From: Longimicrobiales bacterium
GTDB lineage: Bacteria > Gemmatimonadota > Gemmatimonadetes > Longimicrobiales > Gaopeijiaceae
Assembly: GCA_965116905.1 (NCBI GenBank)
Contig: OZ220732.1
Location: 4,143,121-4,207,120, forward strand
DNA: 64,000 bases
Reading direction: 5' to 3'
Each line of letters begins with the position of its first letter. The first letter of the stretch is position 1. Below the pieces are notes generated by a model, which searched no databases, was not told where the DNA came from, and saw nothing but the letters and a program-made list of their open reading frames with translations. Shown here piece by piece: positions 35,211 through 37,656 of this stretch. The position numbers and the translations under genes were made by a program.

Positions 35211-35518
35211 GCCCTTATCCCCCTGGTGATGAGACGTCACGGGGTTCGCAGGTTGCGCCCCTTTATTATAACCCCCACGCCCAGACGTGTGCCCCCTCCA
35301 GTTGTGCCGGTGATCGGCAGGAGAGTCCGGGCCGTCGATTTCGGGGGTTCCCGATGGAGCCGGGGGATCGTGTCACCTCCGCGGGTGGCAAGCGCGTGAG
35401 CGTCGGCGCGATGTAGCTGACGGTCCTGGCGGGCGGGCGCCAAGGCTCGCGGCAGCGGGCAGGCCACCCCTGGTTGGCGGGCGGCGTCGAGTGGGCAGAC
35501 TGGGGGCGCCCATAGGAG

Positions 35519-35555
35519 CATGCCGGTGTCCCGGGATTTGCCGCGGAAACGTGGG
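35519..35555 (-). repeat. Left 37-bp inverted repeat
   Basis: CATGCCGGTGTCCCGGGATTTGCCGCGGAAACGTGGG; its reverse complement matches 37418-37454 at 34/37. Confidence 0.93.
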
Positions 35556-35966
35556 GTGACGATCCGAGGCAGCCGCCACCTCGGTGCCCCGCCAGCGGCA
35601 GGCCAGACTGAGGCAACATCCGTTAGCCCACTGGCCCATCTCCGCAGCCCATCGCCGGACCGATCCCGGGACCGCGCTTTCCAACCCCCCGCTGTCCCAA
35701 ACCGTCGAAACACAGGCCGATCCTGCTATAGACGGGTTTTGAAACGGCGGTTTCGGCGAGGTCCGGGACCCGCTGGCGGATGACCCCCAGGAGCCACCGG
35801 CGGCCCGCTGGCGGGCGATCGGGCATCGGCGACCCTTCCACGTCATCCCGACCCGAGATCGTGCGTCCTGGGCCATCACAGAGGGCCGGAAATCGGCCGT
35901 TATCTTTCAGGTGCACGGAAGCACAATTCACATAAGCCGTTGCCGGACTTGAACCTGGAGGATCAC

Positions 35967-37415
35967 ATGAACACCACGCAACTCGGAGAACGGATCGCCG
36001 AACTCGCCGCCCGGATCAACATCGCCACCCACGAGATGCTCACCCTCGTCGCCGAGTTCGACCGCCGCGAGGGATGGGCCGACGCCTTCGACTCCTGCGC
36101 CGAGTGGCTCGCCTGGCGGACCGGACGCACGGTCGCCACCTGCCGCGAGAACGTACGCGTCGCGCATGCGCTCGAGGACCTGCCCGCCACCTCGGCCGAG
36201 ATGAAGGCCGGGCGCCTCTCCTACGCCAAGGCGCGGGCCATCACCCGGGTGGCCACGCCCCGGACCGAGGCCGAACTCCTCGACTACGCCCGCAAGGGCT
36301 CGGCCGCGGCGGTGGAGCGCATGGTGCGGGGGGTGAAGCACCTGTCGCGCGACGGCGAGATCGGGGCCGAAGAGGCCCGGCACCGGGCCCGCACGTTGTC
36401 GGTCGTCATCGCCGCGGACGGGACGTACGTGGTGCGGGGCCGGCTCGAGCCCGAGGCCGGAGCCGTGCTGATGCGGGCCATCGAGGCCGCGAGCGACGCG
36501 CTGTACCGGGGCGAGGACCCCGATGCGCGGCCACGGAGCCGCCAGCGCAGGGCCGATGCGATGGGGCTCGTCGCCGAGCGGGCGCTGGCGGCGGGGCTGG
36601 GAGCGGGGGCCGATGCGAGAGAGGAGGCCGACGCGGGGGAAGCGATCGCGGAAGCGACGCCGAGCGGGACGCGGGCCGAGCGGTACCAGGTGACGGTGCA
36701 CACCGAGATGGCCACGCTGGAGGAGGGCGGCGCGGGGGGCCGGTCGGAGCTCGACGGGGTGCGGGTGAGCGCCGAGACCTCGCGGCGCATGGCGTGCGAT
36801 GCGTCGCTGGTGGGGATGCTGCACCGGGAGGGCAAGGTCGTCAGCGTGGGGCGGAAGACGCGGACCATCCCGCCGCACCTCCGCCGGGCGCTCGAGGAGC
36901 GGGACCGGGGCTGCCGGTACCCGGCCTGCGGGAGCCGGTTCACCGAGGCGCATCATGTCCGGCACTGGGCCGACGGCGGCGAGACGAGTCTGGCGAACAC
37001 GGTGCTGCTCTGCCGGCGGCACCACCGGCTCGTGCACGAGGGCAGGGTCCGGATGGCGCTCGACCGGCACGGCCGGGCGGTGTTCTTCGCGCGCAGCGGG
37101 GCGGCGGTCGCGAGCGCGCCCCCGCTGCCGGAGCCGAAGCTGCCCCTGCCGCCCCCGCCCCCGCTTGGGCCCGGCGAGATGTACAACGGTGCGGCACGAC
37201 TCCTGGACTCGGCGATCCCATGGGAGATCGAGGCCGCGGCACGGGAGGCGGTGGAGGCGGCACCGGAGGCGGGCGAGGTGGGCGAGCAGGCCGGCGAGCC
37301 GGGCGAGGTGGTGGAGCAGGCCGGCAGGGCCGACCGCAGAACCGACCGCAGACGCGAGGACCCGGACCGCCGCAGACGCCAGGACAATCCGCCACCACCC
37401 GCCCAGGCCGCCTGA
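35967..37415 (+). CDS. DUF222 domain and HNH endonuclease protein
   Basis: AEFDRREGW, SCAEWLAWR, GRLSYAKARAI, RRADAM, RRMACDA, then RDRGCRYPAC...AHHVRHWADGGETSLANTVLLCRRHHRLVHEG. GGAGG RBS. Confidence 0.93.
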   Translation: MNTTQLGERIAELAARINIATHEMLTLVAEFDRREGWADAFDSCAEWLAWRTGRTVATCRENVRVAHALEDLPATSAEMKAGRLSYAKARAITRVATPRTEAELLDYARKGSAAAVERMVRGVKHLSRDGEIGAEEARHRARTLSVVIAADGTYVVRGRLEPEAGAVLMRAIEAASDALYRGEDPDARPRSRQRRADAMGLVAERALAAGLGAGADAREEADAGEAIAEATPSGTRAERYQVTVHTEMATLEEGGAGGRSELDGVRVSAETSRRMACDASLVGMLHREGKVVSVGRKTRTIPPHLRRALEERDRGCRYPACGSRFTEAHHVRHWADGGETSLANTVLLCRRHHRLVHEGRVRMALDRHGRAVFFARSGAAVASAPPLPEPKLPLPPPPPLGPGEMYNGAARLLDSAIPWEIEAAAREAVEAAPEAGEVGEQAGEPGEVVEQAGRADRRTDRRREDPDRRRRQDNPPPPAQAA

Positions 37416-37417
37416 GT

Positions 37418-37454
37418 CCCGCGTTTCCGCGGCAAATCCAGGGACACCCGCATG
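37418..37454 (+). repeat. Right 37-bp inverted repeat
   Basis: CCCGCGTTTCCGCGGCAAATCCAGGGACACCCGCATG, separated from the HNH stop codon by 2 nt. Confidence 0.93.
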
Positions 37455-37526
37455 TCGGGATGGGACAGGGACCGGCCGCACAACGACCCCGGAAGCCGGC
37501 AGCCGGGCAAGCGGTGCCACGCATGA

Positions 37527-37607
37527 TCGGCCCGCCACGGACGCTCGGCCCGCCACGGACGCTCGGCCCGCCACGGACGCTCGGCCCGCCACGGACGCTT
37601 GGCCCGC
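37527..37607. repeat. 18-bp tandem repeat, 4 perfect copies plus a partial copy
   Basis: TCGGCCCGCCACGGACGC four times, then TTGGCCCGC. Confidence 0.97.
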
Positions 37608-37656
37608 TGCGGGCCCACGACCTCTGCGGGCGACCGGGCCTGACCCCGTAGCTCGC

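Follow-up and report, generated by a model that had tools for sequence, protein, structure and literature searches.

A dispersed DUF222-HNH gene unit with inward-facing end repeats in a Longimicrobiales genome

How does a gene enclosed by inverted repeats become dispersed when no transposase is found with it? This question is raised by a locus in a 64-kb stretch of a Longimicrobiales genome (64,000 nucleotides, hereafter the window), for which a reading made from the letters alone (the sequence-only reading) had proposed a candidate novel element made of a DUF222-HNH nuclease gene, a long leader and 37-bp inverted repeats. DUF222-HNH genes abound, and to our knowledge no mechanism has been established for them. 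The family comprises about 25,000 clusters at 50% identity.

The unit and its end repeats

The two 37-bp arms are identical at 34 of 37 positions, both end outward in CATG and, at E≤1e-3, form the sole inverted match within the window (E 3e-7). The right arm begins 2 nt past the stop codon of the single DUF222-HNH ORF, which is preceded by GGAGG at 35957, and the non-coding leader, claimed to be about 410 bp, measures 411 bp. The layout described by the sequence-only reading is thus confirmed. No other long ORF lies between the repeats in the window copy, whose neighbours are an Ig-domain gene on one side and a PF00144 serine-hydrolase gene on the other. Two homologues carry a Gemmatimonadota label.

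The conserved repeat extends 12 bp outward of each 37-mer, giving an end unit of about 49 bp that combines an imperfect dyad with a pair of GTCCC cores at a distance of 21 bp (Table 1). In the left unit, a degenerate GTCCC core is followed by CATG, by the second core 21 bp on (35528) and by the imperfect parS/NBS-like dyad (35537-35550). In 28 of 29 copies, the 100 bp outside the left repeat are strongly skewed towards G (mean 0.26; genome sd 0.14), and GGG runs are frequent there; the same 29-copy comparison showed no G-skew in the 100 bp outside the right repeat.

Table 1. Features of the element, in window coordinates
Feature	Coordinates	Strand	Basis or remark
G-rich low-complexity left outer arm, variable length	35407..35506	+	outer boundary blurred; common to copy B from 35473
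Left end-repeat unit, about 49 bp, contains 37-bp arm 35519-35555	35507..35555	+	repeat comparison
Variable spacer, mosaic among copies	35556..35692	+	mismatch counts in a 100-bp interval
Conserved promoter-like block	35693..35735	+	GTCCC core, degenerate core 21 bp on, extended -10-like TATAGA (35727); putative promoter role
Degenerate counterpart of LexA-like direct-repeat box	35751..35766	+	aligned with box of 62-65% identity copies
DUF222-HNH gene, 482 aa	35967..37415	+	Pfam; last ~90 aa variable, low-complexity
Predicted ParB/Spo0J/KorB/Noc-like HTH DNA-binding domain, residues 16-126	36012..36344	+	structure model, fold comparison
Zinc-binding HNH nuclease domain, residues 303-372	36873..37082	+	Pfam and McrA-/IscB-like fold matches
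Right end-repeat unit, inward-pointing, contains 37-bp arm 37418-37454	37418..37466	-	four genome copies alike to 37466
18-bp tandem repeat in right outer arm	37516..37622	.	replaced in other species by arrays of unlike ~18-bp units, some GTCCC-built

The genome holds four close and two distant DUF222-HNH copies. When the 4.2 Mb were searched with the 37-mer at up to 11 mismatches, 8 matches were found, every one within 3 mismatches, and all 8 belong to four inward-facing pairs that each enclose a gene copy, the arrangement that the sequence-only reading had named as support. In five relatives, a consensus pattern of the repeat gave 94 matches, and the reversed control 0. By hand tally, 78 of these lie beside the gene or a remnant ("beside" reaching up to 5.6 kb where an IS intervenes), a further 2 make up an inverted pair with no gene, and the remaining 14 occur singly. 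With 8/8 matches here and 78/94 in the relatives adjoining the gene or a remnant, the 37-mer is not a generic REP-like repeat.

Across 53 genomes of the genus, gene and repeat were found together in 29 and neither was found in 13; the gene stands alone in 5 and the repeat in 6. These counts are given as such, with no statistic, and include non-independent kin. All 22 genus genomes whose best gene copy reaches at least 69% identity carry the repeat. Five of the six repeat-only genomes are fragmented assemblies with several matches, and the remaining one has a single weak match; the gene-only genomes hold a subfamily at 62-66% identity with a diverged repeat and a changed recognition helix. The gene was not found with this query in 19 of the 53 genomes, and the repeat pattern was found in none of the 281 genomes examined outside the genus.

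The commonest GTCCC spacing is 21 bp (79 counts), and one to three units are found per end. All 73 scored end sites point inward, 36 of them being right-end sites. The end repeat is not a clean palindrome, half of the dyad being missing in one subfamily, and relatives have not retained the CAT-N6-ATG dyad of the four local copies. A reading of the ends as a tyrosine-recombinase/dif module was rejected on this ground and because a dif-like site lies elsewhere; this site, identified with a dif consensus, is at G000:C1:2929977, near the GC-skew maximum (2932715). Tandem arrays of the end unit with a period of about 50 bp, resembling iteron or centromere arrays, are present in other genomes (5 units at G056:C1:2926043-2926328 and 3 units at G060:C1:31985-32126).

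Occupied and empty sites, boundaries and orientation

Empty sites, also sought by the sequence-only reading, exist between species. The window site in 8 relatives holds the element or a piece of it in 4, is empty with a 17-bp gap in 1 and carries a DUF1028 gene instead in 3. The other three local sites are occupied in 3/13, 1/13 and 3/13 orthologous loci, and 14 of 25 copies from relatives have both flanks collinear in this genome without the element, the gap measuring 21-212 bp in 8 cases. From one species to another, many intergenic sites differ in whether they hold a copy, and we therefore read the DUF222-HNH unit as mobile. All these filled/empty comparisons are between species, with flanks 66-95% identical, so that age has blurred the details of the junctions. 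A PIN/MazE-type gene pair that two relatives have at site A is replaced here by the element, and part of the pair survives at the element's right edge.

Several sites are common to different species, and some copies are therefore old. Sites that are empty here and filled in two different relatives each were noted at G000:C1:2277970, 2351736, 654724 and about 3593000, in one case with different subfamilies in the two relatives. They are either hotspots or ancestral copies lost in this genome. No shared target consensus was noticed at empty sites.

The proposal that the inverted repeats are the element ends holds insofar as they form gene-bound, inward-facing pairs; as exact ends they fail, since homology runs raggedly from 12 to more than 130 bp beyond them. 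Among the four local copies, homology halts 12-15 bp outside the 37-mer, extending to at least 46 bp in subsets, and in the G014 copies it continues for about 130-200 bp. Of the two outcomes that the sequence-only reading had set against itself, homology that does not end at the repeats was thus observed, while a 37-mer unlinked to DUF222-HNH genes was not. As noted from the window, no target-site duplication is seen, either at the four local copies or at the cross-species junctions inspected. The combination of precise terminal repeats and target duplication that marks a TIR insertion sequence was not found.

Other definitions of the ends were tried and rejected. A palindromic target built from the two outer arms has one exact genome match, but no such motif lies at the inspected empty sites. 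A TCAA-type right end, of the kind known from IS200/IS605, occurs in only 2 of 4 copies. A MerR-type palindrome as the true left end is present in 6 of 9 G014 copies, in none of the G020 and G009 copies examined and at many unrelated sites. This MerR-operator-like palindrome (21-23 bp) was observed at 14 sites in G000:C1 (including 670393 and 1013277), in 13-29 copies in four relatives and in 2 copies in G010; one copy lies upstream of a MerR/TipAS gene, and in the six G014 elements it is placed in the left arm.

The ragged boundaries bear on whether the unit moves by genuine cut-and-paste or with a recombinase-like activity. In that case the DUF222 middle (residues 127-300) would be a new catalytic domain, or a host recombinase would act in trans, and once precise ends would have eroded. 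We consider this improbable: even the four local copies, whose ORFs differ by about 1-2%, share no fixed boundary or target duplication, no column is invariant across 143 homologues, and no recombinase fold is among the matches listed. What speaks for it is that several inward binding units per end recall the multi-site ends of Tn7, Mu and IS21, that the middle region has no confident match, and that an IS110 element targets the repeat, much as IS4321 and IS5075 reportedly target the ends of Tn21. In G001, this IS110-family element (Pfam DEDD + Transposase_20) interrupts the end repeat at 6 sites, always at one identical position (L142:441-2000, L133, L137, L143, L148 and L089); its copies are 99.6-100% identical, with one deleted remnant.

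MITE-like derivatives, anticipated by the sequence-only reading, were found only in the sense of short copies that keep both ends (four in G020, two in G001). The deletion junctions differ among all those examined, as would be expected if copies decay where they stand and not if MITEs were amplified. In copy B, the middle is replaced by 3.3 kb of other DNA (L002:5463-8800) whose two ORFs have no Pfam matches; one end of this DNA is another dispersed repeat family, like the 89-bp inverted repeat in a truncated G007 copy. In the assembled contigs of three read runs, a comparison of low power, there was no sign of a circle, of an end-to-end joint or of an empty allele in the same species, so the ragged ends may reflect age. 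The summed contig depth in X1 was 3- to 10-fold higher over the element than over its flanks (contigs, three runs).

Inversion of the unit, another earlier suggestion, finds no support in the end sites, as 0 of 73 are misoriented and the left and right outer spacers are unswapped: the bases just outside the 37-mer are of the left type in 35/37 left sites and in 1/36 right sites. Both orientations, as expected of an invertible element, were not seen among the 73 sites, and occupied orthologous sites have the same orientation throughout. For the leader-encoded RNA suggested for the same locus, a conserved structure is not supported either, since the consensus fold of 19 leaders reaches -4.3 kcal/mol with 0/12 pairs compensated, and an Rfam search of the leader returned no family at threshold. 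An invertible switch, or a nuclease guided by a leader RNA, is consequently hard to credit, despite the inverted repeats that enclose the unit and an HNH domain resembling that of IscB. One contig does carry an opposite-strand joint (35556/37267), but its short side is only 38 letters, the length of the repeat itself. The likeness to IscB/OMEGA systems lies in a similar zinc HNH domain and a non-coding leader; unlike them, the match here is confined to the HNH domain and the leader has no conserved RNA structure.

The encoded protein and its candidate binding sites

Pfam assigned DUF222 (E 4.5e-22, residues 11-313) and HNH (E 2.3e-6, residues 319-357), both above the curated cut-off. The HNH motif described as intact-looking is confirmed: C316, C321, H329, H330, N344, C349, H352, H353 and H357 are all present, and the nuclease site is predicted to be active. 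In structure comparison, residues 303-372 match the HNH domains of McrA and IscB. In agreement with the sequence-only reading, neither Pfam nor the fold matches listed contain a recombinase or transposase. The full model, made from 143 sequences, has a pLDDT of 88.8; the middle region modelled alone reaches 41.7. An Atlas search gave no named family, and a viral library nothing interpretable.

The best structural match of residues 16-126 is the ParB DNA-binding domain 6s6h (Z 9.1, rmsd 2.5 Å over 97 residues), a Z value in the range that the structure-comparison tool calls ambiguous for helical domains, and the top four matches are all of the ParB family (ParB 9.1, Spo0J 8.1, KorB 7.2 and KorB 6.6). 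Foldseek agrees with a ParB-like fold, though at E 0.05 or worse (Noc DNA-binding domain, TM 0.72 of target), and comparing its profile with that of the host ParB gave no significant match (probability 0.4, E 0.14). In view of these last two results, the ParB likeness is a fold-level prediction, according to which residues 16-126 would form a ParB/KorB-like HTH DNA-binding domain.

Given this predicted domain, it is plausible that the end repeats act as binding sites. The repeat sequence co-diverges with the recognition helix in the subfamily at 62-66% identity. Compared with the 7-base SopB half-site in the excerpted text of PMC3177203, the core agrees at 6 bases, its one mismatch being at a position called important there. 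The dyad resembles parS and NBS, compared with the sequences in the available portion of PMC7383237, and does so more closely in the diverged subfamily. We treat the likeness of dyad and core to parS, NBS and SopB sites as leads. The element may thus be set beside the ParB-parS, Noc-NBS, SopB-sopC and KorB-operator systems for the predicted fold, the parS/NBS-like dyad and the sopC-like tandem arrays of ~50-bp units. It differs from them by its fusion to an HNH nuclease, by end-repeat cores that are direct repeats 21 bp apart, and in that no CTPase domain match or ParA partner was found for this protein or element; the host's own parS lies elsewhere.

Binding might also serve another end. The repeats could be operators or protective marks only, acting in autoregulation or self-immunity, and a promoter-plus-ORF cassette could spread by host recombination during DNA damage and drag them along. 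G010 contains five dispersed copies of a sister subfamily (42-45% identity) whose homology begins at the promoter and which have no end repeat, so the repeats are not needed for the DUF222-HNH family to be multicopy. The core motif is found again in the promoter-like block, which carries a degenerate third pair of cores and whose GTCCC is invariant in 19/19 aligned leaders, a presence that is partly by selection because the leaders were cut at this motif. The variation from one to three repeats per end, and a second subfamily whose different dyad also lies at conserved host sites, point in the same direction. Yet an operator is unneeded 3' of the stop codon, where 36 right-end sites are found, all inward; short derivatives retain both ends, and the repeat sequence co-diverges with the protein. 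We regard a purely regulatory or protective role as unlikely, yet as the main rival of the reading favoured below.

The second subfamily (41-44% identity) is represented in this genome by L004 and L005 (G000:C1 about 1144370-1145907 and 3587612-3589208), with a 26-bp dyad (spacer 6 bp) on either side. The genome contains 22 occurrences of this dyad, some of them at positions conserved among species, and two shuffled versions contained none; searches of G009 and G010 gave no match. A 14-bp parS-like palindrome has 19 exact copies in G000:C1 (including 1144962 and 3588603), and in the second subfamily it lies within the codons for VSAET. Its sequence is not that of the two parS-like sites next to parB (873974 and 874018).

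Homogenisation, selection and a proposed route of spread

In a tree of 26 ORFs, which omits the interrupted copy B and the site-A copies of G048 and G062, the copies group by genome, with a separate clade for every one of five genomes (support 96-100/95-99). Even the G001 copy whose site is also occupied in this genome falls in the G001 clade. The local copies are mosaic when compared in 100-bp intervals; in one interval, copies D and A have 52 mismatches in 97 positions versus 4-5 in 100 for D/B and D/C. The copies are homogenised within each genome, and gene conversion among paralogues is encountered; repeated fresh insertion at the same site may be an alternative.

For the spread of the unit, we favour a self-recognising nuclease element that uses host break repair, a reading in which belief and doubt are about evenly balanced. 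The protein would bind the inward-facing end repeats through the predicted ParB-like domain and tether the two element ends, the HNH domain would nick or cut DNA, and host break repair would copy the element into new sites, by strand annealing or Ku-dependent joining (Ku is present in all five genomes searched). The same breaks would give rise to gene conversion among copies, to internal deletions that spare both ends and to loss of adjacent host DNA. We favour self-recognition with nuclease-triggered repair because ragged ends, lost host DNA, deletions and conversion are all explained by the two domains present. Purifying selection on the gene and the LexA-like boxes of distant copies, described below, also speak for it. 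Against it stand the repeat-free dispersed copies in G010, the age of copies at sites common to several species, the weak ParB match in sequence and the lack of a clean palindrome in the repeat.

Free-standing HNH homing endonuclease genes are nuclease-only, selfish and thought to spread by host break repair with flank loss or co-conversion. The element resembles them as a nuclease-only selfish gene whose spread would be repair-based, and departs from them in lying at many unrelated sites rather than at a cognate empty allele, in having end repeats and in being part of no intron or intein. With TIR insertion sequences and MITEs it shares one gene between inverted repeats, internal-deletion derivatives and ends targeted by an IS110 element; unlike these, it has no DDE domain among the matches listed, no precise ends, no target duplication and no amplified derivatives.

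The element is a member of the known DUF222-HNH/REP13E12 family. As in the REP13E12/13E12 repeats of mycobacteria, DUF222 (PF02720) is joined to HNH (PF01844) in dispersed, multicopy units with no transposase. The accessible sections of two papers extend the likeness to conversion among paralogues (PMC13061034) and, as a candidate parallel, to DNA-damage regulation in relatives (PMC4181829). The first, a 2026 preprint, counts REP13E12 regions with the leading hotspots of gene conversion and describes them as still having no defined function. What sets the present element apart is its occurrence in Gemmatimonadota-labelled relatives, defined inward end repeats, two-ended derivatives and mapped empty sites. 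The excerpted literature on DUF222-HNH, REP13E12 and HNH mobile elements (including PMC10589994 and PMC11187229) yielded no end repeats or mobility mechanism, nor was a ParB-like domain or such ends found described in the available extracts on REP13E12/DUF222-HNH.

A bolder form of the self-recognising nuclease reading, which we offer tentatively and with more doubt than belief, is that a domain of ParB descent brings the element's own end arrays together, breaks are introduced by the HNH domain and transposition is finished by host repair, which would define a new autonomous class of mobile DNA without transposase, recombinase or guide RNA. If true, it would give a mechanism to a family of some 25,000 clusters that includes the REP13E12 conversion hotspots. 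If movement occurs as proposed, it would represent a transposition mode without transposase and a source of local gene loss. The locus supplies material for testing this: a compact element, a candidate binding unit of about 49 bp whose sequence changes along with the recognition helix, naturally occurring derivatives that retain both ends, sites without the element and, as a control, sister copies that lack the repeat.

The dN/dS ratio was 0.11-0.34 in 10/10 pairs (simple counting method, GC-rich codons), which indicates that the DUF222-HNH gene is probably under purifying selection. Such selection, together with LexA-like boxes and the repair role proposed for 13E12 HNH genes in the portion of PMC4181829 available, would suit a domesticated DNA-damage repair nuclease kept by the host, with repeats and copy number as by-products of conversion or duplication. 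That the gene was not found with this query in 19/53 genus genomes, that its copy number ranges from 0 to 9, that many copies are broken and that its sites are specific to lineages and accompanied by loss of neighbouring genes makes this very unlikely.

The LexA-like box was deduced from lexA upstream DNA. The box occurs in 10/10 loci at 62-66% identity and in 0/5 at 71-87% identity, being intact in distant copies and degenerate in the window copy. Copy C lies directly upstream of an IMS-family polymerase gene (L003:3359-4993, -), which has a LexA-like box upstream.
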